In this document: positions 17,885 through 38,788 of the stretch, one piece after another
Layout: each line of letters opens with the position of its first letter
Numbering within the stretch: the stretch's first letter is position 1
IMG/VR virus record: IMGVR_UViG_3300010429_000387
Location: 96,001-160,000 of that record
Length of the DNA stretch: 64,000 nt
Strand: one strand, 5' to 3'
Origin: a virus
Lineage: Duplodnaviria > Caudoviricetes
Translations under genes and position numbers: made by a program
The notes under the pieces: model-generated
What the model was told of the DNA's origin: nothing
The model's database searches: none
Seen by the model: the letters and a program-made list of their open reading frames with translations, nothing else

Positions 17885-19288
17885 GTGAAAGCGAGCCAAA
17901 AGGTCCGAACGGTCATTGCCAGAGAGGAAGGGCTGCCCCTACCGCCCCCACCTCCTGGGTCCGGTGAGGGTGGGTCCCTCAAGCGAGAGATCCCTAAGGG
18001 TCATGAGTTTGACCCCAAGGCGCTCAAGCCTCTTGCTCGGGCTCTGTTCTCTTCATCGGTTGCCCTTGGTCACGCCGTTACGGCCTACAAGGAGTTCGCT
18101 CGAATCAAGTCCAGTTCCATCTCTCCGGATGGGATGCTTGGGGGGAAGGGTTACGTCCTGAAGGTCAAGGATGTTCGGGCCAAGCTCCAGCAGGCATGTG
18201 AGCTTCTCTCGGCCCTCACTGACACTCTTCATGATGAGCTACACGGACCTCACTGGAACGCCAAGCTCTCTGATGTTGGGCAGAATGATGCTGAGGACAT
18301 CACTGAGCTTCTTGATGAGTCCGATGAGGTCCTTGAGGACCCTGAGCGCTTTGGTGACAAAGAGGTCCAGGACATCGAGAAGAAAAACGACGGGAAGGGT
18401 GGGACCCCCAACACCAAGAAGACCGAGGACCAGATCAAGGAGTCCGAGGCCCGTCAGAATGAGACCGAAGCCTCCCGGCTCCCCGATGCTGGTGGGAAAG
18501 AGACCATGGAGGCTGCTCCGGCTGGGAGTCGTGAGCGGTCCAAGCAAGCATCCGACTGGAAGGCCCCTTCTGGGTGGGGTCGCTTCGCCAACTCTTCCGT
18601 CCCAGTGGATACTCTCCCTGGACCTCGTGTGAACCACCTTGAGCGTGGGGAGCAGACCGGCCCAGGGGGCTCCTACAACCGGGATGAGCCTCGGGTCGAG
18701 GATGAGTGGGGCATGGCCGAAGGGGCTCCTCCGAAGACCCTCAACAAGGTCTGGGGAAGCATCGAGGAGTGGGGTGCCTCTGGGCTCCCTGCTGATACCG
18801 AGACCCGTACTGAAGCCAAGGACTTCGGGGTTGGCTATGGAGCCAAGGGTGAGGGAACCGAGGGCTACGGGACCAAGAACCCTGATGGGCGAGGGGTCTG
18901 GGGTCCACAGAGTGACCTTCCCAACGACCCCCAGACTACCACCAAGGACCCAGGGGGCATCCCCTTTGGCGGGGGACCTCAACGGGACTTCTGGGGTGCG
19001 GTAGCTGAGTCGGAACTTCCCTTCGACGGCCCTGACCCTGTTGCACGGTCGGACTACTACGAGGGTGACAAGGGGAACCTCGTCAATGTGAACCCACATG
19101 GCAATCGCCCTGTGGCCCAGTCAGAGATGCCTGGGAATGATGGCGTCAACTACAACTTCGACCGGGACCTTCCCAACACTGGTCAAGTCTACGAACAGCA
19201 GGCAGTTCCCTACGTGAAGCGTGATTGGACAACGCACAACGACCGGAACGACATGCAAGACCTCTACAGGATGGACAAAAATGGCTGA
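17885..19288 (+). CDS. Hypothetical head-region protein with a low-complexity repeated C-half
   Basis: AAGGAGG RBS before GTG 17885; repeated A-x-S-x-[LMV]-P-x-D units. Confidence 0.75.
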   Translation: MKASQKVRTVIAREEGLPLPPPPPGSGEGGSLKREIPKGHEFDPKALKPLARALFSSSVALGHAVTAYKEFARIKSSSISPDGMLGGKGYVLKVKDVRAKLQQACELLSALTDTLHDELHGPHWNAKLSDVGQNDAEDITELLDESDEVLEDPERFGDKEVQDIEKKNDGKGGTPNTKKTEDQIKESEARQNETEASRLPDAGGKETMEAAPAGSRERSKQASDWKAPSGWGRFANSSVPVDTLPGPRVNHLERGEQTGPGGSYNRDEPRVEDEWGMAEGAPPKTLNKVWGSIEEWGASGLPADTETRTEAKDFGVGYGAKGEGTEGYGTKNPDGRGVWGPQSDLPNDPQTTTKDPGGIPFGGGPQRDFWGAVAESELPFDGPDPVARSDYYEGDKGNLVNVNPHGNRPVAQSEMPGNDGVNYNFDRDLPNTGQVYEQQAVPYVKRDWTTHNDRNDMQDLYRMDKNG

Positions 19289-21296
19289 CCTTGGCGATCT
19301 TACCAATTTCATGAAAGAGGGCTCGGTCGCCAACCTCGACTGGCTCGATGTTGATGGGAAGCAGTATCGGGAACTGGATCAGCTCCCGAAGCAGAACCTC
19401 GACATCGCTCCGGACTTGGAACACGTCTGGAGCCATTCGGACAGTCCTCAGACCATCGTCCCCAACAAGGAAGCTGGCCCGAAGACGATGCTGGATGTGG
19501 GTCTTGGCAAGACGGCTTCTGAGGAGGCCATCCGCCGGGTGATCAAGGTCGCCAGGCTGGCTTTGATGCAGTCCACCGACCCAGCCAACTTCAGGCACGC
19601 CCTGACCTCCAGGTTCGATTCCCAGGTCTTGAGCGAAGCCCGTCCAGTCCTTGCTCAGATCCTCCAAGAAAGAGGTCTCCTGGGTCGTTACTACGTGGAG
19701 GCCATTGACTTCCCCAACTGCCACAAGGCGGGGAAGGAGATCGCTACCTTCACCAAGAAGTACGCATCAAGTGCCCAGTTCTTGGTGGCGAAGGACTCCT
19801 GTGCAGGGTGCATCCACAGCTCTGGGAACACTTGTGCGGTCTTCCAGAAGGAGTTGGTCCTGGAGGTCCCCTACACCCCAGCTCTGGCTGAGGCAGTAGA
19901 GCGGAGCCAGTCCGCCCAAGGGAAGCTCATTCAGGCTTCTAGTCTGACCCCCCGTGAGCGCATCAAGGCAGCCCACCTGGCATCCGACGTGAGGGTATCC
20001 GACCGGGTAGAGACCCCGAAGCCGGTGGTCAACCCTGCTCAGTTCATGCGGGCCACGGTCGAGACCCCCAAGGTCCACCTCCCCGTCATGGCCTCCCAGG
20101 CTCAGGCCCTACACGACGCCCAGATGGCCTGGAACCCTGAGGTGGCTTCGGGTAAGACCGCTGCAACCTCTCGGAATGCCGCCGATAAGAAGGCTTTCGA
20201 CATTGTGACCTTCCTCCGACGGGAGATGCTGAAGGGGCATGGGGAGCAGGCGCTTCTCCACTCCCTCAAGCTCTCCTTCTCTCTGGATGACCTTCGAGCG
20301 ACCCGTCATGCCTGGGAGCCAGTCTTCAAGGAGGCCGGGTACTTCGGGACGATCTACTCCACCCAGGAGTCCTTCAACGATTGCCATGAGGGAGCCGACT
20401 TCCTTGCGAAGTTCAACCCCTCGGTGAAGGGGATCGTGGCGGGAGGGAAGTGCTCAAGCTGCATCTACAGCAAGATGTCCCGGTGCATGATGTACGGGAA
20501 GCCCTTGGTTGCCAAGGCTGAGGACCTGTACACCCCCGAGATGGTCAGCACGGTTGTTCGTGAGCACCGTCTGGCAGGGCGTCTGGGGACTGGGGCTGAG
20601 ACCTCCAAGTGGGGAAGCACACCCGTGGAAGCCCTCAAGGTTGTCTATCGGACGGCCTCGAAGGCGGTTCAGGCTCCCCCAGTTCCAATGAGGGCCTACG
20701 TGGAGCAAGCCTTCCGTGGGGCCGACCACGGACACATCACGGCTGGCCTTACCAAGAGAGAGATAGTCAAGACTGCCACTCGGTACCTGAACGAGGGTCT
20801 CTACGGAGAACAGCTCTTCCAGGCGCTTCAGACTCGTTTCGATGTTCGGGACATCCAAGCCTCGACCGAGGAGCTGAAGGTTGCCCTGGCGGAGCAGGGG
20901 CTTCAGGGCATCTTCTTCATCGACCCGGCAGTCTATGATGACTACGCCAGGGGTTGTGATGAGGGTTCTCGGCTTCATCGAGCCCGCATGGTCCCTTACC
21001 TCAAGATGGGTCCGAAGTGCGCCTCCTGTGTCCTTCAGCCCCATCCAGGGTTCTGCTCCAAGTACGCCAAGACCCTGGTCTTGGAGCCCCCCTACACGGA
21101 TAAGGCTGCCCAGCAGCAAGAGATCCTGGCCTCTGGGAAAGCTACCGAGATCAACTTGGCGACCTTGATGGTCAACGACAAGTCCATCGTCGCTGAGTTC
21201 GCCCTGAAGTCTGCCACAGACATCGAACTCAACCCCGAACCCGCCAAGGCTGCCACCATCACGGTGGAGTTGGGTGGAGCGAAGATCGACCTATGA
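19281..21296 (+). CDS. Hypothetical protein with three Cys-rich repeats
   Basis: Three copies of E.G..G..[YF]...C-x(20-26)-CxxC-x(7-8)-C..[FY].K.LV. Confidence 0.8.
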   Translation: MADLGDLTNFMKEGSVANLDWLDVDGKQYRELDQLPKQNLDIAPDLEHVWSHSDSPQTIVPNKEAGPKTMLDVGLGKTASEEAIRRVIKVARLALMQSTDPANFRHALTSRFDSQVLSEARPVLAQILQERGLLGRYYVEAIDFPNCHKAGKEIATFTKKYASSAQFLVAKDSCAGCIHSSGNTCAVFQKELVLEVPYTPALAEAVERSQSAQGKLIQASSLTPRERIKAAHLASDVRVSDRVETPKPVVNPAQFMRATVETPKVHLPVMASQAQALHDAQMAWNPEVASGKTAATSRNAADKKAFDIVTFLRREMLKGHGEQALLHSLKLSFSLDDLRATRHAWEPVFKEAGYFGTIYSTQESFNDCHEGADFLAKFNPSVKGIVAGGKCSSCIYSKMSRCMMYGKPLVAKAEDLYTPEMVSTVVREHRLAGRLGTGAETSKWGSTPVEALKVVYRTASKAVQAPPVPMRAYVEQAFRGADHGHITAGLTKREIVKTATRYLNEGLYGEQLFQALQTRFDVRDIQASTEELKVALAEQGLQGIFFIDPAVYDDYARGCDEGSRLHRARMVPYLKMGPKCASCVLQPHPGFCSKYAKTLVLEPPYTDKAAQQQEILASGKATEINLATLMVNDKSIVAEFALKSATDIELNPEPAKAATITVELGGAKIDL

Positions 21297-21682
21297 GTGA
21301 CGAAGTCCTCATCCTCAAGGTAGCTGCCAGGTACCTTCACGCTGACCAGTCCCCTGGTATGCGCAAGGAGGTCAGGGATCTCGTCAAGCCAATCAACAAG
21401 CCAAAGGGCATCGACAAGGGGATCGTCAAGGAACACGGGCAGCTCATGGAAGACGGGAACGATGACACGGTGGACCCCAACCGCCGGGACATCCGACCCC
21501 AAGACGTGTTCATCCCGAAGCCAGACCAGGTCAGCGTCAGGAACCTAGCCGAGACAGGGAAGGACCTCTCGAAGGCTATCGAGAAGCAGATCCCCAAGGA
21601 CAAGGGCTACGACTCCGTTCGCAACCTCAGCCAGTATCTCATCGAAACTGGCGGTGGTGGTGGTGCTAAGCCCGTCAAGTGA
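21293..21682 (+). CDS. Hypothetical protein with N-terminal KVAARY
   Basis: ATGA overlap with the upstream gene. Confidence 0.75.
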   Translation: MSDEVLILKVAARYLHADQSPGMRKEVRDLVKPINKPKGIDKGIVKEHGQLMEDGNDDTVDPNRRDIRPQDVFIPKPDQVSVRNLAETGKDLSKAIEKQIPKDKGYDSVRNLSQYLIETGGGGGAKPVK

Positions 21683-21689
21683 GGTTGTC

Positions 21690-22364
21690 ATGAGTGACGG
21701 AACACTACCCAATCAAGAATGTGCTGACCTCGAAGACGAGGAGTCAGAGGACTCTGACGAGGGTCAGGAGGTATTCGATGCCTCTCAGAGCGATGAGGAA
21801 AGGGCTGAAGGGATCCTATCGATCCTTCCTGTTCATGACGCCCCGAACACTGGCAAGAATGCCCTGAAGGTCAAGCGTGGTCCAGGTCGCCCCCGGAAGG
21901 TCGAGCGGATGCCGACCACCAGCGACCTCCAGTACCATGCCATCAACTCCAAGAAGAAGCAGGGGTTCATTGCCACCGACCCCCTGGTTCAGGCTATCGA
22001 GCAGAGGGTCGATGCCCCGGCCAACCTTCAGCGTATCAAGTTGGAGATTGCCAAGGAGATCGCATCCCTGCACTTCCAGAGGGTCGAAACAGAGAAGTAT
22101 GGGCGGGACACCTCCCAGATTTCCTCTCGACGGATTGATGCCCTGGAACGACTTGCCAAGATCGAGCTGAAGATCCGTGAGATCGACAAGGACTCGATCA
22201 ACCTTGGCAGCGAGAAGATGCAGAAGATTTTCGTCCTCTGGGTCGAGGTCATGCGAGAGGTTGCTGCTGAGGTTCTGCCTCCCGAGGCAATGGATCTCTT
22301 CTTCAACCGCTTCGCTACTGCGATGGAGGGGTGGGAAGAGAAGGCAGCCAACGTGCTGAGGTAA
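21690..22364 (+). CDS. Putative terminase small subunit with an AT-hook-like motif
   Basis: Directly upstream of TerL; helical; contains KRGPGRPRK. Confidence 0.5.
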   Translation: MSDGTLPNQECADLEDEESEDSDEGQEVFDASQSDEERAEGILSILPVHDAPNTGKNALKVKRGPGRPRKVERMPTTSDLQYHAINSKKKQGFIATDPLVQAIEQRVDAPANLQRIKLEIAKEIASLHFQRVETEKYGRDTSQISSRRIDALERLAKIELKIREIDKDSINLGSEKMQKIFVLWVEVMREVAAEVLPPEAMDLFFNRFATAMEGWEEKAANVLR

Positions 22365-22365
22365 C

Positions 22366-24351
22366 ATGGCTGCCAAGGACAAGAACTCCCCAGGAATTTC
22401 TCATATCATCCGAAGCGCTGGTCACAAGGCAAAGACCATCGCTGAAGAGATGGCCGGGCAGGGGGACATTCCCGCTGTAGGTGTGGACGGGAATCATACG
22501 AGGATCTTCAACGTCCTCCAGTATGCCGAATCCCCGTGGGGCTTGGATATGAAGCTGTACCCAGTACAGCGCTTCATCGTCAAGCTCTACTACCACCTTC
22601 CGCTGGACGACAAGAACAAGACCATCACGATCACTGACATGTTCAAGACCCGAGTGCTCCACACCTTTACCGAGGTGGAGTACCTGAGGTACTTGTACAA
22701 CGAGGGTCGATGCAACATCGGGGAGCAGGACCACATCCGCCGTCAGCTCATCCTCCCCATCGGCCGTAGGTCGGGGAAGACCACCCTCTCCGCCATCTTT
22801 GCCAGCTACGAGCTGTACCGACTCCTGTCTCTCGGGAATCCCCAGGCGTACTACGGTCTCCCGAACGGGAACAGGATCCAGATCATCTCGGTGGCAACGG
22901 ACAAGGACCAGGCAGGTCTCTTGTTCAACGACGTGACCTCTCACATGGCGAAGTGTGAGTTCTTCAAGCCGTACATCGCCAACAACACCCTCAGCTACGT
23001 ACAGTTCCGAACCCCCTACGACATTGAGAAGTACGGCCCGACGGTTCGCCATGAGAACGGCAAGTTCACTTCGTTCAATGGCAAGTCCAGTATCCGGGTG
23101 ACCTTCAAGGCGTCAGTCTCGAAGGGTCTTCGAGGGTCTGGTAACATCGTCATCATCCTGGACGAGATGGCCCACTTCCAGGACAAGGGGAACTCCTCGG
23201 CCAAGGACATCTATGATGCTGTCACCCCATCTGCCCTAGCCTTCTCCCCGAAGGACCCGAGGAACAGTGCCGTCTGTATCGGGCCGGTGGAGAGCCGAAT
23301 CATCTCGATTTCGTCCCCTCTCAACAGGGCGGGTAAGTTCTACGAGTTGTTCCACTTCGCTATGTCGAAGGCGGAGGGGTCTGAGAACATGCTAGCCATC
23401 CAGGCTCCGACCTGGGAGGTGAACCCGACAGTCGAGCCAACCTTCCTGAAGGAGAAGTACCATGAGGACCCCTCGGTCTTCATGACCGAGTATGGGGCGA
23501 ACTTCTCCGACCGTGTTCGTGGTTGGATTGAGCGTGAGGCCGACCTGATTGAGTGCATCCGTCCTGAGCTTCGTCCCAGGACGGCTGGACCTGCCAGATA
23601 CCCACACCAGATGGGGATCGACGTTGGGCTCATTGGAGACGGTACCACCCTAGCCATCACGCACCTCGACAAGGACAAGGTAGTCCTCGACTACCATGAG
23701 GCTTGGTACGCCGGGATCCCTTGGAAGGAGACCAACCCTCACCTTCCGGGGCCTATGGTGGACTACGCTAGGAGTCTTGAGGCTCAAGAGCGCTTGGACT
23801 TTGAGGAGATCGCCAACTGGATTGCAGCAGTTTGCAAGAGATTCTACATCACGGATGGTCTCTTCGACCGGTGGAATGGGCTCCCCCTGGAGCAGGCTCT
23901 CCACAAGAGGGGTCTGAAGCAGTTCAAGAGTGATTTCTTCACCCGAGATGACAAGAGCCGGATGTTCCAGGCGGCCAAGCTCCTGATGTTCGACCGTCGC
24001 CTGGTCCTTTACGACTTCCCGCTCCCTCAGGCTGCCGATGGTGGTGGTAAGCACTCGGCTTTCATCAACGAGTTGCTGACCCTTCAGGCTACTCAGCTCG
24101 CAAAGAACCAGGTCATCGTTGAGGCACCCAAGATTTCAGGGGCTCATGATGACATCTCTGATGCCTACGTCCGAGCGGTCTGGCTTTCGTTGGAACGCCT
24201 ATCAAACACGAAGCTAGTATCCAGGGGCACTAACGCTCCTCGGGAGGCTTCTCGTTTGGCAACCGTCCAGCACTACCAGGTGGCTCGGATGCGGTCACAC
24301 GGGGTCTTTAGGGATCGTATTGCACCCAGAGCTATGGGGAGAAGGGTGTGA
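22366..24351 (+). CDS. terL: Terminase large subunit
   Basis: LYPVQ, GRRSGKT (Walker A), IIILDE (Walker B), ISSP, nuclease motifs MGIDVG and HDDISDA. Confidence 0.92.
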   Translation: MAAKDKNSPGISHIIRSAGHKAKTIAEEMAGQGDIPAVGVDGNHTRIFNVLQYAESPWGLDMKLYPVQRFIVKLYYHLPLDDKNKTITITDMFKTRVLHTFTEVEYLRYLYNEGRCNIGEQDHIRRQLILPIGRRSGKTTLSAIFASYELYRLLSLGNPQAYYGLPNGNRIQIISVATDKDQAGLLFNDVTSHMAKCEFFKPYIANNTLSYVQFRTPYDIEKYGPTVRHENGKFTSFNGKSSIRVTFKASVSKGLRGSGNIVIILDEMAHFQDKGNSSAKDIYDAVTPSALAFSPKDPRNSAVCIGPVESRIISISSPLNRAGKFYELFHFAMSKAEGSENMLAIQAPTWEVNPTVEPTFLKEKYHEDPSVFMTEYGANFSDRVRGWIEREADLIECIRPELRPRTAGPARYPHQMGIDVGLIGDGTTLAITHLDKDKVVLDYHEAWYAGIPWKETNPHLPGPMVDYARSLEAQERLDFEEIANWIAAVCKRFYITDGLFDRWNGLPLEQALHKRGLKQFKSDFFTRDDKSRMFQAAKLLMFDRRLVLYDFPLPQAADGGGKHSAFINELLTLQATQLAKNQVIVEAPKISGAHDDISDAYVRAVWLSLERLSNTKLVSRGTNAPREASRLATVQHYQVARMRSHGVFRDRIAPRAMGRRV

Positions 24352-25415
24352 CCATGCGCCTGCCTGTCCTCGATGAAGTAGGTCTCCGGGTAGCTGCCCG
24401 GTACAAATCCAAGAAGAAGCTGGAGAGTGGCAACACCCTCTATGTCTACAGCCCTCAGCAGGTCTCCCGTAGGAACAACCAGAAGGCAGACCGAGTCGAG
24501 AAGCTACGTGGCAAGTTGGACAGCCTCCGTAAGAAGGTGAAGACCGACCTCAAGTCCAAGGACCCCAAGACCAAGCTCACGGCCCTGGTTGTGGCTCTCA
24601 TCGACCATACCTATGAGCGAGTCGGGAACGACACCTCTGCTGAAGAGAGAGGCCACTTTGGGGTGACTGGGTGGCAGAAGCAGCACATCTCCCTTGGTAA
24701 GGGTCGTGCGATCATCAAGTACACTGGGAAGTCAGGGGTCAAGCACGAGAAGGTTGTTGATGACCCGAGCATCATCCCAGCCCTGAAGGAAGCCTATGAC
24801 TCGGTCGAGAAGGAAACCGATGGCATCTTTGGGGAGGGCGATGCGGCTGTTGGGTCCTCCGATGTGAACGAGTACCTCTCCGAGTTTGACATCACGGCCA
24901 AGGATCTTCGGGGCCTCCATGCAAACAGGGAGATGCAGGATCGCTTGAAGGCGATTCGGTCCAAGGGGCCGAAGCTGCCCTCTGACCGTAAGGGCAAGGA
25001 CAAGATCCTGAAGGAGGAGTTCAAGAAGGCTCTCGAAGGAGCGGCTGAGGCGGTAGGGCACGAGCCCTCAACCCTCCGGAGCCAGTACCTCGTACCGTCC
25101 CTTGAGGAAGCCTACATGAAGGATGGGACGGTCATCGAGAAGCTGAATGAGAAGGTGGCTGGCCTCGACCAAGACGAGCCCCCACCCCTTGTCTTCTCTC
25201 ACCGGGTCATTCGCCAGTTGGTGGATCACATGGTCGGGGAGGACACCGTGACTGAAGACTCTGACTTCCAGGCAATGCGTATTGCTTTCCGTCAGAGGGG
25301 AGGCTCCTGGGAGCGGTTCATCAACGGGGACACCAACCACAACAACATCTTGAAGGATGTCGTTGTTGCTTGGTCCAAGTTGCCTGGGCACAAGAAGAAG
25401 CAGGAGACCCTCTGA
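24348..25415 (+). CDS. DNA topoisomerase IB (poxvirus/bacterial type) with an extra C-terminal module
   Basis: Catalytic pentad present: ERVGN (R), YTGKSG (K), AKDLR (R), VGH (H), RSQY (Y). Confidence 0.9.
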   Translation: MTMRLPVLDEVGLRVAARYKSKKKLESGNTLYVYSPQQVSRRNNQKADRVEKLRGKLDSLRKKVKTDLKSKDPKTKLTALVVALIDHTYERVGNDTSAEERGHFGVTGWQKQHISLGKGRAIIKYTGKSGVKHEKVVDDPSIIPALKEAYDSVEKETDGIFGEGDAAVGSSDVNEYLSEFDITAKDLRGLHANREMQDRLKAIRSKGPKLPSDRKGKDKILKEEFKKALEGAAEAVGHEPSTLRSQYLVPSLEEAYMKDGTVIEKLNEKVAGLDQDEPPPLVFSHRVIRQLVDHMVGEDTVTEDSDFQAMRIAFRQRGGSWERFINGDTNHNNILKDVVVAWSKLPGHKKKQETL

Positions 25416-25936
25416 TGCCAGAGCAACCTCGTACCCGAGACTGCATCATTCTCGTCAAGGGTGATGCTCTCCCTGTCTCAGTGGATGAGCTTCTAGCCCG
25501 TGAGGGTTGGCGTGGAGGTCAGGCTGCTCAGTGGGTGTCCTCGACCAAAGACGAGCTTCTGGTTACCCGTTCCACTGGGCTCTATGCTGGCATCTTTCTG
25601 TGGGGTTCTGATGAGGACTCTGACCAGCATACCGCCATGACTCGGAGTCAGCCCTACTATCGGTATGCAACGATTGGGGCCGGAGGTTGGCACATCCTCA
25701 CAACCAGCTTTGAGCGGTACACCTATGCCTCTCGAACTGGTGGGGGGGCATTGGTCCCTATCGAGTACCATGCAAGCGACCGATTGGTCTTTTCCTTGCG
25801 TGGGTTTTTCACCAAGGAGGATGAGTGGACGCTCTCTGGAGACCCTAGAGCCCCGAACTCCTACTACATTGCCTTCGTCAGCCAGGCTCCGTCGGCATCC
25901 ACCAACTACTACATGGGGCTACAGGTCAGCATCTAG
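25415..25936 (+). CDS. Putative capsid decoration protein, tandem paralog 1
   Basis: Shares RDC..KGD..GW.GGQ, LWGS and TKEDE.TLSGDPR with the next two genes; C-half resembles 36471..37094. Confidence 0.6.
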   Translation: MPEQPRTRDCIILVKGDALPVSVDELLAREGWRGGQAAQWVSSTKDELLVTRSTGLYAGIFLWGSDEDSDQHTAMTRSQPYYRYATIGAGGWHILTTSFERYTYASRTGGGALVPIEYHASDRLVFSLRGFFTKEDEWTLSGDPRAPNSYYIAFVSQAPSASTNYYMGLQVSI

Positions 25937-25945
25937 GATGGTAGC

Positions 25946-26476
25946 ATGAGCCTTACTCTCAACTTCCCCCGAGATCGAGACTGTTTCGTCCTGTTCAAGG
26001 GTGATGCCTACCCTGTTGCTGTCTCCCAGGACATGATGTCTCAAGGGTGGCATGGGGGTCAGGGGGTCCGTTGGATCGACTCTCCTCGTGATGAGTTCCT
26101 GGTTACCTTTTCAGATGGACTCTATGGTGGGTTCATGCTCTGGGGGTCCAATGAGCCTTCGGATGTTCTGACCTCGCTCACTGGGAGCCAGGCAGAGTAC
26201 GGGTACGGAACCTTCTGTTCTGGTGGCTGGGTCATCGCCACTAAGACAGTGGAACTCTACACCTACGCATCGAGGACTGGTCCTGGACCCCTTGTTCGGT
26301 TGAACTACCAGGTGGGCGAGAGAGTTCGATTCTCCCTTCGAGGCTTCTGGACCAAGGAGGATGAGTGGACCCTGTCTGGGGACCCTCGGGGATCCAACGG
26401 CTACTACATCGGGAACGTGGTCCAAGCCCCCTCACCGGACAACAACGACTATATCGTCATCCAGACTTCGATTTGA
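25946..26476 (+). CDS. Putative capsid decoration protein, tandem paralog 2
   Basis: Same shared motifs as paralog 1. Confidence 0.6.
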   Translation: MSLTLNFPRDRDCFVLFKGDAYPVAVSQDMMSQGWHGGQGVRWIDSPRDEFLVTFSDGLYGGFMLWGSNEPSDVLTSLTGSQAEYGYGTFCSGGWVIATKTVELYTYASRTGPGPLVRLNYQVGERVRFSLRGFWTKEDEWTLSGDPRGSNGYYIGNVVQAPSPDNNDYIVIQTSI

Positions 26477-26482
26477 GGGACC

Positions 26483-27001
26483 ATGCCTGAGATCATCCGA
26501 GGCCGAGACTGCATCGTTTTCTTCAAGGGCGACTCCCAAACGGTTGTGGTCTCTCAGGCCATGGTGAACGGTGGGTGGCCTGGTGGTCAGGGTGTGCAGT
26601 GGGTTGACTCAGCCAGTGACGAACGGGTGGTCTCCTATTCGGAGGGTCTCTACGGAGGTATTCTCATCTGGGGGTCAGATGAGGACGGGGATCGGTTCAC
26701 CTCTATTTCTGGGCAGCAACCACACTACCGATACGCAACCATGTTCAGTGGTGGGGCTCTTATCTCCACCTCCACCTATGAGCGCTATACCTACGCCTCT
26801 CGAATCGGAGGGGGACCCCTAGTGCCCCTGGTCTACGAGACCAATGACATACTTTACTTGTCGAGAAGGGGTCTTTGGACGAAGGAAGATGAGTTGACCC
26901 TCTCCGGAGACCCCCGAGCCCCGTGCTTCTTCAGTGGATTCGTGGCTCAGGTCCCCAAGGCATCCAACCGGATGTTCCTGGGAATCCAAACGAGTATGTA
27001 G
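26483..27001 (+). CDS. Putative capsid decoration protein, tandem paralog 3
   Basis: Same shared motifs as paralog 1. Confidence 0.6.
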   Translation: MPEIIRGRDCIVFFKGDSQTVVVSQAMVNGGWPGGQGVQWVDSASDERVVSYSEGLYGGILIWGSDEDGDRFTSISGQQPHYRYATMFSGGALISTSTYERYTYASRIGGGPLVPLVYETNDILYLSRRGLWTKEDELTLSGDPRAPCFFSGFVAQVPKASNRMFLGIQTSM

Positions 27002-27544
27002 ATGGACTCACAAGTTACCCGCCGAACCGAGACAGAACCAGGCATCAAGCTCAGGAAGCCCCTGGACAAGATGACTCCGGCGGATCTTTGTGAGGAGGCT
27101 GCCATCATTCGCAGGGGGATTGAGAAGTCTGCGGAGCGACTCAACGGGATCTACGCCTACTTGTATACGAGTGTTCGTAGACTCCCATCAGATGACATGA
27201 CTTATGCCTACTTGTCTGTAGCAAACTCCGGAAAGCGCTTCTCTGGGATGGTCATTCAGGCATCCAAGAGGACCGCTGGCACCGAAGGACGAGCCCTTCT
27301 TCTTGCCAAGCGTGAGATTGAAGAGCGGGACCGCTTCAGGCAGGTTGCTGACCTGAAGCGTCAGGCAGAAGAGGCCAAGCAGAAGAAGGCCCAGGCCAGG
27401 CCCACAGACCCCCTTGAAGCACTTTTCGGAGTGCCCCTCATGCCGAGTGAGGTTTCCGAACCGGAACTCTCCCAGAGCTTCATCGACGACAGCCAGGGAC
27501 CCTCGTCTGACCTTGACGACCTCTACGGCGAGGAGCTGACCTAA
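27002..27544 (+). CDS. Hypothetical helical protein
   Basis: Fills the gap exactly; TAATG overlap with the portal gene. Confidence 0.7.
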   Translation: MDSQVTRRTETEPGIKLRKPLDKMTPADLCEEAAIIRRGIEKSAERLNGIYAYLYTSVRRLPSDDMTYAYLSVANSGKRFSGMVIQASKRTAGTEGRALLLAKREIEERDRFRQVADLKRQAEEAKQKKAQARPTDPLEALFGVPLMPSEVSEPELSQSFIDDSQGPSSDLDDLYGEELT

Positions 27545-29361
27545 TGCCTTCGGATCGGTTCACCAACGTACCCAGAGCTAACCTGAGCGGTAGCGTTCTC
27601 GCCAATACCCAGGCTGGTAGCTACCCTCATGCCCCCTACGCCTCCAAGGGCGGGTTTTCCTCTCAACTCACTGAGAAGGAGCGCTTGGCCCGTCGGATTC
27701 GGACTGCCAATGCTGGTGGGCACATGGGTGGGATCAGTGGTGGAGCAGGCAACACTGTCCTGTCTGGGCAGAGCCCCTTCTTCAGCCCACAGCTTTCCAC
27801 CGACTTCTTGGAACAGCCTCAATCTCTACGTGAGAAGCGTGAGATTTACAGGCACTTCTACAATGCCGACCCCATCGTGGGTCAGGCCATTGATCTTCAC
27901 ACTGAGCTTCCAATGTCGAAGGTTCGCCTCTCGACTCCGAAGCCTCGGACTTGCCCCCAGGGGTTCAAGGACCCAGATGACTACGGAAAGTACATCCTCG
28001 ACTTCTTTGAGAGGATGTGCAAGCGAATCAAGCTGTTCCAGCGGTTGATCACAGGGACCCACCACTACTGGTTGGATGGGAACGTGTTCTTCTTCGCTGA
28101 GGACTCGACGGTTGATGTCCCTCCTCAGGTTGGACACAAGGTCGAGAAGGTACCTCGGGCCGTCCTTCATGAGGATGGGACTGGGAGTGAGTACGAGGAG
28201 GACAGCATCAACGAGCTTCCCGACCGAGAGGACCGGGAGCTGGCCTACTACCAGAAGAACTACCAGGGCTGGTCCAAGCTCATCATCCTCCCCATCGACC
28301 AGGTCAAGCTCTCCTCCTTCAGCTTCACGGACAAGGTCCGGATCGAGCTGATCCCGAGCGACCGGGACAAGGTTCTCTTCCAGCAGGCTATGTCTGGGGA
28401 TGAGCGTTCTCAAGAGATGATCCAAGAGATCCCTCAAGAGGTCAGGGAGTACATTGAGTCTGGGAAGCTCATCCCGCTTGGTACCGACCCTGACGAGGGC
28501 TCGTTCTGCTATCACCTGGCAGCCCGTAGAGGAGCTGGGGAGGAGCTGGGGGCCAGTCTTCTGGACCGTTGCCTCCGGACGCTCTACTATCGTGAGAAGC
28601 TCCGTCAGGCCCAGACCCAGATTGCCTCCAGGGCCATGACCCCGAAGCGGTTGGTCTGGGGTGAGAACCTTTCTGAGACCGACACTGAAGACCTCCGGGA
28701 GCAGGTGGACCTGGCCCTGGTGGACCCTGACTACTCCATCGTGACCAACTACGAGGTCCACTGGGAGGAGATCGGTTCCCGTGATCGTCTGCTGGACTTG
28801 TCCAGCGAGTACGAGATCACAGACAAGCAGCTATTTGCTGGGCTTGGGGTTACTGAGTCACTCCTGAACGGTGAGTCCACGTTCTCGGGTGACCGAGTCA
28901 AGCTAGAAGTCCTGAATACCCGATACGTTCTCTTCAGAGAGGTCATCCAGGAGTACGTCGAGGAGTACCTTTTCAAGCCAGTAGCCCGTAGAAAGGGCTT
29001 CGTTGAGAAGGACCAGTGGGGCAACGAGGTGGTGTTGTTCCCACGCCTCAGCTTCACCCGTCTGGCCCTACGAGACAGCCAGGACACCTACGACGCCTTG
29101 TTCAACCTCTACCAGAAGGGTTCGATCAGTATCGACCTCATTTTGGAGATGTTTAACATCGACCCACAGGACACCAAGGAGAAGATCGAGAAGGACATGT
29201 TCTCGGTCAACGACTCCACCTTCAATGAGGTCATTCGAGGGGTCTATGGCGAGGTCGGTCGAATGCTCGCTGAGAAGACCGACATCATGGACAAGATCGC
29301 CAAGTACCTTGGTCTCCAGGTCAAGCAGGAGCCCCCCGCTGAAGAGGAAGGGCGCTACTGA
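27544..29361 (+). CDS. Portal protein
   Basis: 605 aa between terminase and protease; FYNADPIVGQAIDLHTELP, G.SLLDRC, GLGVTESLLNGE; helical portal-like pattern. Confidence 0.8.
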   Translation: MPSDRFTNVPRANLSGSVLANTQAGSYPHAPYASKGGFSSQLTEKERLARRIRTANAGGHMGGISGGAGNTVLSGQSPFFSPQLSTDFLEQPQSLREKREIYRHFYNADPIVGQAIDLHTELPMSKVRLSTPKPRTCPQGFKDPDDYGKYILDFFERMCKRIKLFQRLITGTHHYWLDGNVFFFAEDSTVDVPPQVGHKVEKVPRAVLHEDGTGSEYEEDSINELPDREDRELAYYQKNYQGWSKLIILPIDQVKLSSFSFTDKVRIELIPSDRDKVLFQQAMSGDERSQEMIQEIPQEVREYIESGKLIPLGTDPDEGSFCYHLAARRGAGEELGASLLDRCLRTLYYREKLRQAQTQIASRAMTPKRLVWGENLSETDTEDLREQVDLALVDPDYSIVTNYEVHWEEIGSRDRLLDLSSEYEITDKQLFAGLGVTESLLNGESTFSGDRVKLEVLNTRYVLFREVIQEYVEEYLFKPVARRKGFVEKDQWGNEVVLFPRLSFTRLALRDSQDTYDALFNLYQKGSISIDLILEMFNIDPQDTKEKIEKDMFSVNDSTFNEVIRGVYGEVGRMLAEKTDIMDKIAKYLGLQVKQEPPAEEEGRY

Positions 29362-29397
29362 ACCCCTCGATAGTTCTTTTGGTCGAGACCTTGATTG

Positions 29398-32300
29398 ATG
29401 GACATCCTGGGCACCAAAGATCGCAACGAGCGTGAGGAGGCGGAGGCGGAGCGTCTTGTTCGCCCCCTCCCCAAGCTCAAGCCTCCTCGGCATGACCGCC
29501 GACGGGAAGAGATGCAGGTTGACCGGGACCCGGATGTAGAGGGTGATCCCGACACCAAGTCTGACCCAGACCTCTCGATGAACCGTCGGGAGATCGGTGG
29601 GTCCGCTGACTTCTATCGTCGATTCGTTCGAGAGGTTCTTGCAGGTGAGGCTGCCAAGAAGCTGATCACCGTTCGTCGCAAGGAAGACGACCAAACCGTC
29701 CAGGTGTCCGAGGACACCCTCCACGGCCCTGAAGCCTCGAAGTACGAGAAGATCAAGGAGGGGGACCCCAAGCCCAAGAAGGACCGCTCCCACCTTCAGT
29801 TGGTGAAGGCCCCGAAGGAAGAGGCAGCCCCGAAGGAAGAGGCCCCGAAGGAAGAGGCGCCCAAGCCCAAAGGTAAGCCAGACCTGAAAGAGGCCCCCAA
29901 GCCCAAGGAGAAGGCCAAGGAGCCCAAGAAGGAGCAGGCAAAGCTCACAGATGAGGAGCTTGCTGCCAACGTCGTCAACAAGTGGAAGGCTGGGGAGAAG
30001 CACAAGGCCAAGGACTTCCAAGAGTTTGGCGATTCGATCCCCACCTCGACCAAGGACTCGGAGACAGGGGAGGTGCTCTTCCTTGACCCCAAGTCGAAGA
30101 AGCGACTCCCCTTCGAGAAGCTACCCAACACAGAGAAAGCTCGCCTCATCCAGGAGTTCTCCAAGAAGAAGGAGCAGGCCGGTAAGGAGAAGGCAGAGCA
30201 GGAGAAGACCCAGAAGGAGCAGGCCGCTCTGACTCAGGCCATCTCCAACGCTGGTGGGGAGGATACTGAGAAGGCTCGTAAGCTCCTTCGGGACCTCGCT
30301 GACCCCAAGAGTGAAGCCTCCAAGAAGATTCAGGAGATCGTATCCAAGGGGCACGCAGCAGAGGACTTGGACATTGCCAAGACCTTCCCAGAACTTGCGA
30401 AGGTGGGCCAGCTCCCTCCTTCGGTCAAGAACGTGGCTGATCTCGTTCGTGTGGCGAAGCCTTTCAAGGAGCAAGAGGACAAGAGAGAGGCTGAGGAGAA
30501 GAAGAAGGCGGACGAAAAGGCCAAAGCTGAGGCAGAGGAAGCCAAGAAGCATGAGGCCCCTCCACCACCAAAGAGGAAGCCGCCTACTAGCAGGGAGAAG
30601 TATGAGGCTCTAAGTATGCTCTTGGACACCTTCCCAGCGGATGTGGCGTCCAAGTACATGCTTGATCACCCTGATGACATCAAGGAGATTGTCACTCAAT
30701 ATCAATCTCTTAGGGATACAGCCAAAAGCCTAACTCCACACGCTGCCGCCGCCGCTCTAAAGCAGGCAGGTGCAGACTTCACACTTAATCCAATGAGTGT
30801 GAAGCCTCCAAAGGAGCTAAACGGAAAGCCCTTTTCGGAGGTGGACCCCGAGGAGAAAGCTGAGGCTATGCAGAAGTACCGGATGAAGCAGGTTGCATTG
30901 AACCTGGCAGTCCGGGACCATGCTATAGCTGCTCTCAAGGGGACTGGGGTGAACCCGGAGTTGGCCTCGAAGATTGCGGATCACACCCTATCGGCCGGTT
31001 CCGACCCCAAGGCACACCGACAGAAGACCGTAGAAGCCTCACGAGACCTCTTCGTCAGTAGTAGCGTCCCCAAGCCGGAAGACCTTGAGGACGAGGATGA
31101 GGACGAGGACGAGGAGGACGAGCGGTTTGGAGTTCCGAAGAAGGTCAAGCCTGAGCCGAAGCCAACCGACCCCAAGGCGAGAAAGAAGCTGCTAGATGGC
31201 CTGGTCAAGTCCAGCAACCTGGATGCCCAGATGCTAGCGGTAGCTTCCTTCCAGGGTGAGGACTACCAGGAGGCCATGAAGCAGTTCCGAGTAGACCCCT
31301 CTGACAATCCAAAGAGGGTTGTGGCTAAGCTGAGGGCCGCTGAGAAGTTCTTCAAGGAGCAGTCGAAGCTGTACCCACCTGAGGCGGTCTCCGCTCTGGA
31401 GAACCCCTACCAGGTCTTCAGGACTCGAATTAGGCACTCGCTCAGCTCACTCTCTGAGAAGGATGCCGCTTCTGTCCGGAAGCACATTGCTGAGCTTGAC
31501 GCTTCTGACTACGAGTCCTCCCTGAAGGGCCACCAGAAGACTCAGAAGAAGTACGAGAAGGACCGTGAGAAGTGGGAGCGAGACAAGGCCCAGAGTGCGA
31601 AGTCTGGCAAGCCCTTCACTACCCCTGAGCCCATAGAGCCCACCCCTCCAGTGAAGCCTAGGGATTATGACGTGATTCGCCCGAACTCCAAGGGGGACCC
31701 TGAATCAGTTCGGAGGCGGTTCGAGGAGGCATTCAGGAAGAAGAATGCTGCCCTCTATTCTTCTTATCCCGTGGAGGTTTGGCAGATGGGCACAACTATG
31801 CCGTCAAGAGACCAAGTCATACAGGCGATCCGAACCGCCATCTACCATGGGGTCCAACCCTATCCGGCGGGTCATGAGGGGTTCGCCCCGTATACCGGTT
31901 GGGAGCAGGCTCAGATCCGAGACCTGGCGACCCAGGACTTCTCGACCATTCTGGCTGAAGCCAAGGGGTGGTTGAAGTCCCCCGTTCTGTCCAAGTCCAT
32001 CGAGGGGATGGTTCCGGATTCAAGGTTCCGAGCTGCATTGGACCTTGCCATTCGAGATGTTGAGGGTGGCAAGTACGGCTCAGCCATTGATGCCAACCTC
32101 TACAACATGCTCCTAGCGAAGCTCGCTGGGGAGTCCCAGACAGAGACACTTCTGACCATTCGTGAAGCCGCCTCAAACCGAACAGAGGGTACTGACATGA
32201 CCATCAAGATCGCCAAGGAAGACGCAAACAAGGCTCTCAGCCGTATCGACCGTATCGCTGGGCTCATCCAGGCCAACGCAGAAAACTGGAAGATCCCCTT

Positions 32301-32583
32301 TGAGACGGCCAAGGCCATTGTCAACGATCTTGACAAGACGGCGGACGAGATCGAGAAGTCGGCCTACGGTGCAGAGTCCCTCGCCAAGCGTCAGGTCGAA
32401 GTCCTGAAGAACGCCAAGGTCCTTCAGCATGACTCGGACGAAGGCTACATGGGCACGTTCAATGCCCCGACGGCTCCCAAGCAGACCGACTCGGACGAGA
32501 CCTATATGAGCCTTTTCAAGGATGACCAGACGGTCTCCGTGGTGGATGGCAAGTCCTCCACCGGCCGCCCCCTGGCTCCCTGA
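29398..32583 (+). CDS. Large Lys/Glu-rich modular head-region protein
   Basis: About 1060 aa; APKEE repeats and an acidic tract; possible internal starts at 31786 and 32197. Confidence 0.75.
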   Translation: MDILGTKDRNEREEAEAERLVRPLPKLKPPRHDRRREEMQVDRDPDVEGDPDTKSDPDLSMNRREIGGSADFYRRFVREVLAGEAAKKLITVRRKEDDQTVQVSEDTLHGPEASKYEKIKEGDPKPKKDRSHLQLVKAPKEEAAPKEEAPKEEAPKPKGKPDLKEAPKPKEKAKEPKKEQAKLTDEELAANVVNKWKAGEKHKAKDFQEFGDSIPTSTKDSETGEVLFLDPKSKKRLPFEKLPNTEKARLIQEFSKKKEQAGKEKAEQEKTQKEQAALTQAISNAGGEDTEKARKLLRDLADPKSEASKKIQEIVSKGHAAEDLDIAKTFPELAKVGQLPPSVKNVADLVRVAKPFKEQEDKREAEEKKKADEKAKAEAEEAKKHEAPPPPKRKPPTSREKYEALSMLLDTFPADVASKYMLDHPDDIKEIVTQYQSLRDTAKSLTPHAAAAALKQAGADFTLNPMSVKPPKELNGKPFSEVDPEEKAEAMQKYRMKQVALNLAVRDHAIAALKGTGVNPELASKIADHTLSAGSDPKAHRQKTVEASRDLFVSSSVPKPEDLEDEDEDEDEEDERFGVPKKVKPEPKPTDPKARKKLLDGLVKSSNLDAQMLAVASFQGEDYQEAMKQFRVDPSDNPKRVVAKLRAAEKFFKEQSKLYPPEAVSALENPYQVFRTRIRHSLSSLSEKDAASVRKHIAELDASDYESSLKGHQKTQKKYEKDREKWERDKAQSAKSGKPFTTPEPIEPTPPVKPRDYDVIRPNSKGDPESVRRRFEEAFRKKNAALYSSYPVEVWQMGTTMPSRDQVIQAIRTAIYHGVQPYPAGHEGFAPYTGWEQAQIRDLATQDFSTILAEAKGWLKSPVLSKSIEGMVPDSRFRAALDLAIRDVEGGKYGSAIDANLYNMLLAKLAGESQTETLLTIREAASNRTEGTDMTIKIAKEDANKALSRIDRIAGLIQANAENWKIPFETAKAIVNDLDKTADEIEKSAYGAESLAKRQVEVLKNAKVLQHDSDEGYMGTFNAPTAPKQTDSDETYMSLFKDDQTVSVVDGKSSTGRPLAP

Positions 32584-33377: not shown

Positions 33378-35024
33378 ATGGGCTTCGCCAAGACTGCCAG
33401 GGCTAGGGTCACTCAACCGGTCATCAACCAGGCTGGGTGGGTGGACATTCGCTCGAAGGCGTCTTTCCCGGTACCTTCGTTTGAATTGAGGAGTGCTGCT
33501 CAGGTTGTCCTTCAACAGTACGACCCTGCACAGTACCTCCTGTCCCATTGTACCATCATCGCCTCGGTTGACACTGAGAACCCTGGACTCCCCACCGGGG
33601 TCCAGATGTACGACGGAACTCAGATCAACCGGAAATACCCCGACTACCAAGTCACCCTCGGCACCACCAAGTACATCAACAACAACAACGATTGCTGGGA
33701 GCGCAAGCTCCTCCTGGCTTCGTTCCGTACTTTCATTGGTGGTGAGAACTACGTTGAGCACATCCAGATCCCCGAACTCTCCAAGGGGAAGATCATTGAT
33801 GCTGCTGCCCGTGACATCGGTGACTCGGTCTACGTAGACATCTTGATTGCCACTGACCGCAAGCACAAGCCTCTGATTGAGGCTATCACCAGCGGTCAGC
33901 TCAGCACCCTTTCAATGGGGTGTCACGTTGGTTTCACCATCTGTACGAAGTGCGGCAACGTTGCTGAGGATGAGACCCAGCTCTGCCGCCACATCAAGTA
34001 CGAGAAGGGCAATGTCTTCCTAGACTCCAGGGGCCAGCGACGGAAGGTTGCTGAGCTATGCGGGCACATCACGGCCGAACCGGGTTCGGTCAAGTTCATT
34101 GAAGGCAGTTGGGTTGCCAATCCTGCCTTTGCTGGGGCCGTCCTACGGGCCATTCTGGACCCCAAGACTGCTCTTCTGGCTGAAGCTGCCAGGCAGAAGA
34201 TTCAAGTTGCGTTCTCTCGACCAGTAGAGGTTTTCGACTCCTCCTCAATGCAGAAGGCTGCCAGGATTGCCCCGATTGGAGTTGGTGCAAAGGCTGTCCC
34301 ATCGGACCACCTTGCCTACCTCTATGATGGGCCTTCACTTGGGGCACTCAAGGCCCCCCCAGCCTTCTCTGGGTCTGCCAAGGCATCTGAGGCTCGTGAG
34401 GCTCGTTTGAGCCAGATCACGTCAGCTCAGCAGGACTTCCCAGGTCAGGCTGAGCTGAGTGTGGAGCAGAAGGGTCCAGCCCCAGAAGAGGATGGGAACC
34501 CTTTCAAGAAGACCATTGATGACCTCTACAAGTCTCTCGTTGACGAGGTGACTCAGAAGGTTCGCAAGGACCTGTCTCAGGTGGAACAAGACAAAACCAG
34601 AGGCATCCTTGACGAGAATCGCTCGAATCAATCACTCATCAAGTCGGCTATGCGCTACCCCAAGTGGCGTGAGCGGGCGAAGGTGGTTTTGGCTACCGTG
34701 CGAGAGCCCACCAAGGCTCAAAGCATCCTAGCTGGCCTCATTCTCCATGACTTCGGTGGGTGGGAAGCCGTAGCTTCGACCCGACGTTTCACCGGACGTG
34801 AGATTCTTGTTATAGACCGGTTTCTGACACGGATGACCAAGAAGTCTTCCATGGCAGGGGACGGTAGGGTCTACCGCACCGTAATCGCTGTAGGCGGTAC
34901 GGCACCATACGCAGATGTAAATGCCTACCTCACGGCTTGTCGTGGGGTTATGGGCCGTACACCGACAGGGTCCGAGAGGACTCAGCTCTTGGAGAAGGGC
35001 AAACTTTTTGCTCTCGGCCTCTAA
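33378..35024 (+). CDS. Putative prohead maturation protease
   Basis: NYVEH, LSMGC, CTKCG..LC.H insertion and FIEGSWVANPAF fit an HK97/herpes-type Ser protease. Lies before the scaffold and capsid genes. Confidence 0.75.
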   Translation: MGFAKTARARVTQPVINQAGWVDIRSKASFPVPSFELRSAAQVVLQQYDPAQYLLSHCTIIASVDTENPGLPTGVQMYDGTQINRKYPDYQVTLGTTKYINNNNDCWERKLLLASFRTFIGGENYVEHIQIPELSKGKIIDAAARDIGDSVYVDILIATDRKHKPLIEAITSGQLSTLSMGCHVGFTICTKCGNVAEDETQLCRHIKYEKGNVFLDSRGQRRKVAELCGHITAEPGSVKFIEGSWVANPAFAGAVLRAILDPKTALLAEAARQKIQVAFSRPVEVFDSSSMQKAARIAPIGVGAKAVPSDHLAYLYDGPSLGALKAPPAFSGSAKASEAREARLSQITSAQQDFPGQAELSVEQKGPAPEEDGNPFKKTIDDLYKSLVDEVTQKVRKDLSQVEQDKTRGILDENRSNQSLIKSAMRYPKWRERAKVVLATVREPTKAQSILAGLILHDFGGWEAVASTRRFTGREILVIDRFLTRMTKKSSMAGDGRVYRTVIAVGGTAPYADVNAYLTACRGVMGRTPTGSERTQLLEKGKLFALGL

Positions 35025-35070
35025 GGAACTTTTTATACGAGTCCTCGATTCAAGGAAAGGATCTCCCTCC

Positions 35071-36348
35071 ATGCCCCGTGAGCGCACTACTTGGAACCGC
35101 ACAGAAATCGCAAGGACGGCTGGCCTCAAGGTTGCCGATCCCTACACCATGAACCAGGATCACCCGCAACCGAAAGCGGATGCGTATGTGACTGGGGATC
35201 CCTCTTCCTTTGGTGAGGATGTTCATCCTGCCAACGGGACCTGGGAAGCTGAGTACGCAGGAGGGCAGGTCAAGAGGAACGAGATCGGGATGCCGGAGAT
35301 GAGGGGTGATACCTTCAACCATCCCGAGAAGACCGCCTCTGAAGAGGTCCTGACCAAGAAGGCGGCTCTCTGTGTCGCCATCGCTCGGGCGATCCTCCCC
35401 AAGACGGCATCCTCCACCGAGATCGAAGACCAGTCCCTTTCCTTCATGCACCTTCCCGACTCAGAGGTCATGAGCACCTACACCCGACTGGCACAGGACC
35501 AGAAGGAAGGTCAGGAGGAGCAGGCCCAGGCTCAGCAGAAGCAGGGTGGCGAGATGCCTCCCCAGTTCAAGGAGAACGCTGAGAAGAAGAAGGAAGAGGC
35601 CGAGGCCAAGAAGGAGCAGGACAAGAAGGCTCAGGACCAGAAGGAAGGTCAGGGACAGCAGGATCAGGCTCAGGGACAGCAGAAGCAGGCTCAGCAGGAG
35701 CAGATCGCCCAGCTCCAGCAGCAGGCTCAGCAGATCCAGCAGCAGATCGCCCAGCTCCAGCAGCAAGCTCAGGCCCAGCAGCAGGCTCCTGTCGCCCAGG
35801 GTCAGCAGGTCCAGAGCCAGGCTCAGCAGGTTGCCCAGGCAGTCCAGCAAGCCATCGCTCAGGGTCAGGACCCAGTCCAGGCCGTTCAACAGATCATGCA
35901 GCAGCAGGTCCCTGTTGCCCAGCAGCAGGCTCCTATCGGACAGGATGCTGAACTCATCGACGCCATGCTTGCTCAGGACCCCATCCAGGCCCCCACGGCT
36001 GAGATGGAGATCCAGATCGAGACACCCTCGATGGATGTTGGTGAAGTCCAGCTTGGACCGGAGGATGATGTCCTCAACCAGCTCTTCGCCAGCAATGCTG
36101 AAGTTCGTCTGGCCCAGCAGGCTCAGGGACAGGACCCAGACCAGGATCAGGGTCAGGCCCAGCAGAAGCAGGCCCATGTGGTCCGCACTGCCTCCATGCG
36201 TACCGTCGGGACTCGTCCCACTGGTGGCGTGAGCCAGATTGGTGGCCTCCCCTCAGCCGGTTCTTCTGGTGGTGGGGACAAGCTGTCGAGCCTCTGGAAC
36301 TCGGCACCCGATGTTCGTGAGGCATTTGGCCTTCCGACAAACCGATGA
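35071..36348 (+). CDS. Putative scaffolding protein, Gln-rich
   Basis: Between protease and capsid genes; long Q/A/E/K tract; AAGGA RBS before ATG 35071. Confidence 0.6.
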   Translation: MPRERTTWNRTEIARTAGLKVADPYTMNQDHPQPKADAYVTGDPSSFGEDVHPANGTWEAEYAGGQVKRNEIGMPEMRGDTFNHPEKTASEEVLTKKAALCVAIARAILPKTASSTEIEDQSLSFMHLPDSEVMSTYTRLAQDQKEGQEEQAQAQQKQGGEMPPQFKENAEKKKEEAEAKKEQDKKAQDQKEGQGQQDQAQGQQKQAQQEQIAQLQQQAQQIQQQIAQLQQQAQAQQQAPVAQGQQVQSQAQQVAQAVQQAIAQGQDPVQAVQQIMQQQVPVAQQQAPIGQDAELIDAMLAQDPIQAPTAEMEIQIETPSMDVGEVQLGPEDDVLNQLFASNAEVRLAQQAQGQDPDQDQGQAQQKQAHVVRTASMRTVGTRPTGGVSQIGGLPSAGSSGGGDKLSSLWNSAPDVREAFGLPTNR

Positions 36349-38669: not shown

Positions 38670-38788
38670 TAGGTACCTACAGTCTCAATTTCACCTAGCC
38701 AACGTTGACCCGTCGGTGTAAAGCTGAGAGCCTACAAGCACACCAGAGTGCCCTCGGTAAGACCTCTCAGAGATCGGAAGGAACCCAA

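Follow-up and report, generated by a model that had tools for sequence, protein, structure and literature searches.

A gene for an active-looking minimal type IB topoisomerase (TopIB), recognised from its sequence and modelled fold, was found directly behind the terminase gene of a huge tailed phage. Judged from gene order and protein fusions, there is roughly an even chance that the enzyme belongs to the head and packaging apparatus, not to the replication block, and serves as a head-tethered, virion-borne swivel. The DNA analysed, hereafter the window, comprised 64,000 nucleotides (bases 96,001-160,000) of the 407,078-bp IMG/VR virus record IMGVR_UViG_3300010429_000387, which, given its direct terminal repeats, is a complete huge-phage genome. 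All long open reading frames (ORFs) of the window were found on the plus strand. The nearest GenBank record was LR745208.1, a 485-kb uncultured huge phage, with 54% identity in the topoisomerase and 47% in the terminase large subunit (TerL). The topoisomerase gene and its parts were arranged as follows (pLDDT, predicted local distance difference test of the AlphaFold2 model; aa, amino acids).

24354-25415, plus strand: topoisomerase IB gene, supported by Pfam PF01028, the AlphaFold2 model and fold matches; ATG 24354 is the likelier start
24384-24404, plus strand: leader L-R-V-A-A-R-Y, conserved at the start of the topoisomerase core; pLDDT < 50 over residues 1-15
24390-25148, plus strand: minimal TopIB core, delimited by PDB alignments, invariant columns and the secondary structure of the model
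24618, 24729, 24909, 25059 and 25086, plus strand: catalytic pentad R91, K128, R188, H238 and Y247, respectively
25149-25181, plus strand: disordered linker with E-K-V-A-G; pLDDT < 50 over residues 269-278 (numbering of the 353-aa protein P0001)
25182-25412, plus strand: C-terminal four-helix module (C module), homologous to a small stand-alone protein of distant relatives

The ORF at 24348-25415 had been read as a type IB topoisomerase in an earlier note made from the letters of the window, and this reading was confirmed by a match to the Pfam family Topoisom_I (PF01028; 95.1 bits, cut-off 23.7; E 5.4e-27), which scored 96.2 bits on the same gene in a genome-wide profile search. The product was found to contain 353 aa when started at ATG 24354 or 355 aa when started at the alternative GTG 24348. 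The note had also claimed an overlap with terL; the GTG does meet the TGA of terL (24349-24351) as GTGA, but the ATG is favoured and an overlap is probably absent. The ATG lies 2 nucleotides past the terL stop, is suited by the spacing of the Shine-Dalgarno sequence GGAGAAGGG (24337-24346) and is also the start in public gene calls (353 aa, P0001). The two genes are tightly coupled, probably without overlap, and at the other end the TGA of the topoisomerase gene (25413-25415) was found to overlap the ATG of the next gene at 25415. Neither the type IIA profile (PF00521) nor the type IA profile (PF01131) for topoisomerases gave a match in the whole 407-kb genome, so the type IB enzyme is the only recognisable topoisomerase of the phage.

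The catalytic pentad was found to be intact, as claimed before, and contained R91 (ERVGN), K128 (TGKSG), R188 (DLRG), H238 (GHEP) and Y247 (SQYL), assigned by alignment to the TopIB of Deinococcus radiodurans (2f4q) and of variola virus (2h7f). All five columns were invariant in alignments of 22 and of 73 homologues. The AlphaFold2 model of the protein (pLDDT 82.9) was matched best by variola and bacterial TopIBs in a Foldseek search (E 7.6e-13 to 3.8e-11), with 2h7g of variola at E 7.6e-13 (template modelling scores 0.55/0.62); next came 3m4a (E 3.5e-12) and human Top1 (about 1e-9), and the tyrosine recombinases ranked behind the TopIBs, at E >= 5e-4 only. The N-terminal DNA-binding domain, a beta-sheet, was found to be largely missing. 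The alignment to the D. radiodurans enzyme began at its residue 72, and ahead of the first long helix nothing was modelled but a helix (residues 8-16) and a single hairpin (19-31), which corresponds to the final beta-hairpin of that domain. Since this domain is a variable accessory domain, membership in the TopIB catalytic family stands. The stand-alone homologues P0097 and P0101 (262 aa each) contained little beyond the leader and the core. They are thus shorter than the vaccinia TopIB (314 aa), the enzyme commonly named as the smallest topoisomerase; the 255-aa core, with its 262-aa stand-alone forms, may be the smallest natural TopIB and would be attractive for structural and single-molecule studies.

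The location between terminase and portal given in the earlier note was borne out by PHROG matches to both genes. Four ORFs were found to separate the topoisomerase gene from the portal gene, which begins 2.1 kb past it, and the surrounding head module contained the following genes.

21293-21682, plus strand: 129-aa protein with the leader LKVAARY at 21314-21334 (residue 8), upstream of the putative small terminase
22366-24351, plus strand: TerL (PHROG terL families, E about 4e-20), directly upstream of the topoisomerase
25415-27001, plus strand: three tandem paralogues (172-176 aa) with 54% mutual identity, conserved in close relatives
27544-29361, plus strand: portal protein (phrog_16240, E 3e-31)
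29395-32583, plus strand: 1,062-aa post-portal protein, whose N-terminal ~100 aa correspond to the sequence C-terminal of the topoisomerase core in distant relatives
33378-35024, plus strand: prohead (head maturation) protease, 548 aa (phrog_18299, E 2.6e-11; phrog_2774, E 3e-22)
37118-37990, plus strand: major capsid protein of the HK97 fold (phrog_2522, E 1.9e-52; PF05065, 32 bits)

The association of the topoisomerase with head genes was found to extend well beyond the window. More than 1,200 metagenomic homologues were found, many of them on contigs of 350-510 kb, and among 185,579 species genomes the subfamily had only 4 matches, all on contigs of metagenome-assembled genomes; by these searches it is essentially phage-restricted. 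The genes of the window were mapped onto a sample of 80 IMG/VR loci with 10-kb flanks, and head or packaging genes were found near the topoisomerase in 61 of them. The order of the window was kept in the 18 close loci (topoisomerase at least 56% identical), as g129-TerS-like-TerL-Topo-3 paralogues-g180-portal-g1062-g248-protease, in which g248 stands for a 248-aa protein encoded downstream of the 1,062-aa protein. About 43 more distant loci contained, on one strand, the order TerL-portal-(1-4 kb)-Topo-(2-5 kb)-g248-protease. This head-module synteny persisted over TerL identities of 43-77%.

In distant loci the topoisomerase core was found inside ORFs of 1,000-2,813 aa, located between the portal and the head protease. 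These giant ORFs contained two to five Pfam domains each, among them PolyA_pol-type nucleotidyltransferase, 2H/LigT phosphoesterase, PAP2 phosphatase, GNAT, InPase (PF18823), phosphoribosyltransferase (PRTase), DUF5661 and an intein. TopIB as a module of polyvalent head proteins of 1,000-2,800 aa in distant relatives is, on this domain evidence, new here. In seven aligned relatives the core was directly followed by the N-terminal ~100 aa of the post-portal protein, and the junction in these seven giant ORFs contained the pattern [AG]TKT..EREDE..LVKPxPKxKPPRxD...DLSLN[YF]K+VA...RVAxRF. Because the post-portal sequence follows the core, the topoisomerase of these seven relatives forms one covalent chain with a conserved protein of the head module. 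The longest form, of 2,813 aa (relative L029, 4001-12439), contained the topoisomerase core at residues 2036-2239 and, just past its nucleotidyltransferase head domain, an intein that bears a LAGLIDADG domain.

The C module provides a second connection to the terminase-portal region. The earlier note had described EKVAG as separating the enzyme from an unrelated module of about 85 aa; the motif was indeed found in the linker (25149-25163, with the K codon at 25152), where the relatives contain EKTAG, EKAAG or EKAAS, but the module was not unrelated. A hidden Markov model (HMM) of residues 276-353 matched small ORFs (85-130 aa) located directly after terL and before the portal gene; 20 or more distant loci gave such matches (E 1e-12 to 5e-4), and the module shared conserved P.RAD.R, GGSWE and LLK blocks with these stand-alone homologues in the alignment. 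The 85-aa tail is thus, as read from this alignment, a small conserved protein with a gene of its own in relatives, which is also new here; from this comparison, the topoisomerase core was in this lineage inserted between terL and the small gene and fused to it in frame. Modelled alone, the module was found to form a four-helix unit (pLDDT 88). No Pfam or PHROG family was found for it, no PDB match was obtained with Foldseek at E <= 0.001, and a search of ESM Atlas features and structures gave nothing informative. The best VIA-align hit (Z 5.1) was to unrelated proteins, followed by several neck or adaptor chains at Z 3.9-4.8, which is the noise level for helical bundles. A complex prediction for TerL and the C module gave a score of 0.01, which is evidence for neither side. 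Suspected TerL-C-module fusions in some loci proved to be overlapping open frames.

The leader at the start of the core was found to recur on unrelated proteins. The near-identity of LRVAARY in the topoisomerase and LKVAARY in the ORF at 21293, pointed out in the earlier note, was confirmed, both motifs being present and beyond chance by motif counts. The pattern L[RK]VAAR[YF] had four copies in the six-frame 407-kb genome against about 0.02 expected, and R[VI]A[AS]R[YFW] had three among the called genes, whereas shuffles gave 0.05. Overall the leader has 4-5 copies in the genome against about 0.05 expected. It was seen on the topoisomerase, the 129-aa protein, a protein with a J-domain, an ORF at genome position 327,878 and a 159-aa protein encoded at 283,167; the J-domain, 159-aa and 129-aa proteins scored 7.3-19.3 bits with a leader HMM, whereas the maximum of the reversed-sequence null was 1.6 bits. 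The four genomic copies differ in synonymous codons, so selection acts at the protein level, which excludes a DNA-level origin of the shared motif, such as a promoter or RNA element in the starts of ORFs. The note had further likened ERVARR in the ORF at 42628 to the leader; this motif is present, at about residue 116, but it is internal, has no aromatic residue and scored -0.3 bits with the motif HMM, which is noise. The 294-aa product of that ORF (42628-43512) was found to contain a C-terminal pattern (CSCKAWRW ... CKH) like that of SWIM zinc fingers.

The leader was found to open the topoisomerase core in all homologues aligned, even where 100-2,000 residues stand ahead of it, and such N-terminal extensions often started with a second leader copy. 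The check suggested in the note, whether relatives carry other cargo behind the VAARY leader, was positive, the leader recurring at module starts. Homologues of the 129-aa protein in close relatives retained LRVAARF at the N-terminus in all cases, and a search for this protein within longer proteins gave only three forms, of 267-362 aa. In the AlphaFold2 model the leader formed a short low-confidence helix (pLDDT < 50) that was poorly packed on the core, and by this low pLDDT the leader lies outside the packed body of the enzyme. The first helix of the C module, SHRVIRQL, was considered as a leader copy and was not counted, being a well-packed helix in a different register. Outside the window, the J-domain protein (DnaJ-like, with an HPD motif; genome 177,570-178,847, plus strand) was found to open its last 70 aa with LRVAARY, and these 70 aa resemble a winged-helix domain.

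Candidate cleavage sites were found in excess in the head module. The motif K[STVA]A[ASG] occurred 19 times in the structural block of the window against 6.3 +/- 2.5 in shuffles (maximum 15 in 500 shuffles), and the giant ORFs of the relatives contained 84 candidate sites against 36.6 +/- 6.1 in shuffles. Among the 46 topoisomerase ORFs that continue past the core, 16 contained [KR][TVSA]A[AGS] at 8-60 aa after the catalytic tyrosine (chance 3.3%). A conserved G[KR][TV]A[ASG] island was found at residue 312 of a 691-aa protein, within a variable stretch, and two conserved KTAS sites in the protein at the scaffold position. On these motif counts, trimming by the protease at [KR]-[VT]-A-[AGS] joints is plausible. 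The 691-aa protein (19221-21296), encoded upstream of the packaging genes, also contained three Cys-rich repeats. The densest cluster of the candidate motif in the window was found in a 340-aa protein (41609-42631), with K[ST]AA[SK]/KTAS at residues 49, 106, 173 and 222, spaced like module joints.

These observations may be joined as follows. The topoisomerase would be attached to the procapsid at its portal or packaging vertex, by the C module in this phage, by the covalent post-portal fusion in other lineages and possibly by the shared leader. The prohead protease may then trim it at [KR]-[VT]-A-[AGS] sites, and the enzyme would travel with the virion and act on the 407-kb genome, as a swivel that needs no ATP, during DNA exit and first transcription. 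The earlier note had proposed a virion-packaged, protease-matured topoisomerase. This proposal is partly supported. The association with the head or portal apparatus has strong comparative evidence behind it, and virion association is supported by the synteny and the fusions, so that the virus probably carries the enzyme in or at its head; maturation by the protease is plausible, but the check on the capsid N-terminus was negative. Its location inside the capsid, its trimming by the protease and its time of action are what we infer.

A wider and more tentative scheme, which we hold possible but less probable than the tethered swivel itself, would be a modular capsid-cargo system. Here RVAARY-type leaders would address enzymes to the procapsid, the head protease would cut the [KR]-[VT]-A-[AGS] joints, and the products would be injected with the DNA; lineages would switch between a polyprotein and separate tagged genes, and the post-terL protein would have been captured as a portal anchor.

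Several observations weigh against a head-borne enzyme and its processing. The motif [KR]VA[AG] alone was not significantly enriched genome-wide (19 against 13 +/- 3.7). The KTAAG of the capsid protein lies within a conserved fold motif and its K/R was not conserved in 45 homologues, so that a near-universal substrate of the protease shows no such site. The leader was found on two or three proteins encoded far from the head block (genome 177,570-178,847; 283,167; 327,878). Head genes were undetectable within 10 kb in 19 of the 80 loci, and a PHROG scan of 10 large flanking ORFs of loci without head genes gave no structural annotation. In a list of jumbo-phage genes for DNA topology (Iyer et al. 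2021, PMC7824862), a phage-specific TopIB is given for phiRSL1, PaBG, Lu11, NCTB and Motura, and the gene of phiRSL1 is located among metabolic genes. As the sole topoisomerase detected, the enzyme would also suit a general role in replication or transcription, and therefore a general swivel role remains in play. The loci without head genes, the jumbo-phage listing, the phiRSL1 position and the single topoisomerase all favour an ordinary enzyme of replication, transcription or recombination, for which the late operon would be incidental and the leader and linker motifs would have no sorting or cleavage role. Such an enzyme is considered distinctly unlikely, as the gene was absent from the replication block of the window (1-17 kb), the synteny with the head module was kept over the whole range of TerL identities, the covalent fusions to head-module proteins were repeated and the leader was common to non-topoisomerase proteins.

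Two further readings keep the enzyme near the portal but outside the capsid. A swivel of the packaging motor, docked to terminase or portal through the C module, would relax the twist of the concatemer and be absent from the mature virion; the translational coupling of the gene to terL, its in-frame fusion to the small post-terL protein of relatives, the absence of a second topoisomerase and the torsional load made plausible by genomes of 350-510 kb all speak for it. Yet in distant relatives the enzyme follows the portal gene and is fused to RNA- or nucleotide-directed enzymes and to the post-portal protein, which have no evident motor role, and this reading is held to be rather unlikely, somewhat ahead of the ordinary topoisomerase. 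Quite improbable, and the least favoured of these readings, is an enzyme mounted at the neck outside the shell, its C module being adaptor-like and binding the portal after packaging. The module is small and helical, has a basic C-terminal tail and is encoded beside terL and portal, and phage neck or adaptor chains were among its weak structural matches, but these matches did not rise above the noise of helical bundles, candidate adaptor genes were also found after the capsid gene (38265-39139), and the fusion of relatives to polyvalent effector modules better suits an interior cargo. The head-tethered, virion-borne swivel is therefore retained as the preferred reading. If it is true, it would bear on the ejection and first transcription of genomes of 400 kb without torsional arrest. 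The leader, the [KR]-[VT]-A-[AGS] joints and the portal-vertex fusion would form a testable address-and-cut grammar for loading enzymes into heads, which would help the engineering of cargo-carrying capsids.

Some further features of the neighbouring genes were observed. The 236-aa protein (21654-22364) encoded just upstream of terL was helical in its C-terminal half, contained the AT-hook-like sequence RGPGRPRK, had no family match and is likely the small terminase subunit. The three tandem paralogues matched no Pfam or PHROG family and showed a weak similarity (E 4e-4) to a 207-aa protein (36471-37094) beside the capsid gene. The ORF at 34921-36348 is a scaffold candidate. Many of the capsid homologues P0129-P0202 contained an N-terminal extension of 30-60 aa, M[ND]RY.I.L.K.PPP with a stretch rich in Lys and Pro behind it; the extension was absent from the capsid protein of the window and may represent a propeptide that this lineage has lost or split off.

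Among known systems, the jumbo-phage TopIBs share the catalytic domain with the enzyme described here, whereas the identity was 26-31% over part of the domain and these proteins contain 560-670 aa with other extensions. A precedent for a virion-borne enzyme is that the virion proteome of phiRSL1 reportedly includes a DNA topoisomerase, as stated second-hand in PMC7247149, which cites Yamada 2010. The TopIB gene of PaBG is located 3 kb from the capsid gene, and the paper on the PaBG virion proteome, with 14 proteins identified, does not mention a topoisomerase.

The phage-type polyvalent proteins with 2H, InPase, PRTase and GNAT domains were predicted to be packaged and injected (Iyer et al. 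2017, PMC5512222). In the text of that paper the word topoisomerase occurs in the reference list only, and TopIB is not among its catalogued domains. The topoisomerase resembles these proteins in being encoded in the portal/terminase head module, and the giant ORFs of its relatives likewise string 2H, InPase, GNAT, PRTase and nucleotidyltransferase domains together. The protein of the window differs in being a separate gene product with one enzymatic domain and a small non-enzymatic module, and neither a MuF nor a zincin peptidase module was encountered here.

The internal proteins of phage T4 (IPI-III, Alt) bear a capsid targeting sequence that is removed by the prohead protease gp21. The leader resembles it as a short peptide common to unrelated proteins of one phage, with a prohead protease encoded nearby. 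The two sequences are unrelated, however, and the leader, a putative targeting signal, was also found internally at module joints and far from head genes.

The TopIBs of poxviruses (variola, vaccinia) and bacteria (D. radiodurans) share with the phage enzyme the catalytic fold and the R-K-R-H-Y pentad, with the histidine as in poxviruses. The phage enzyme is only about 20% identical to them, is without most of the N-terminal DNA-binding domain and is distinguished by its portable leader, its head-module tail and its terL-portal locus in a tailed phage. The poxvirus TopIB is packaged in virions, and if the phage enzyme is likewise virion-borne, tailed phages would follow the same strategy as poxviruses and supply the cell with a DNA swivel of their own.

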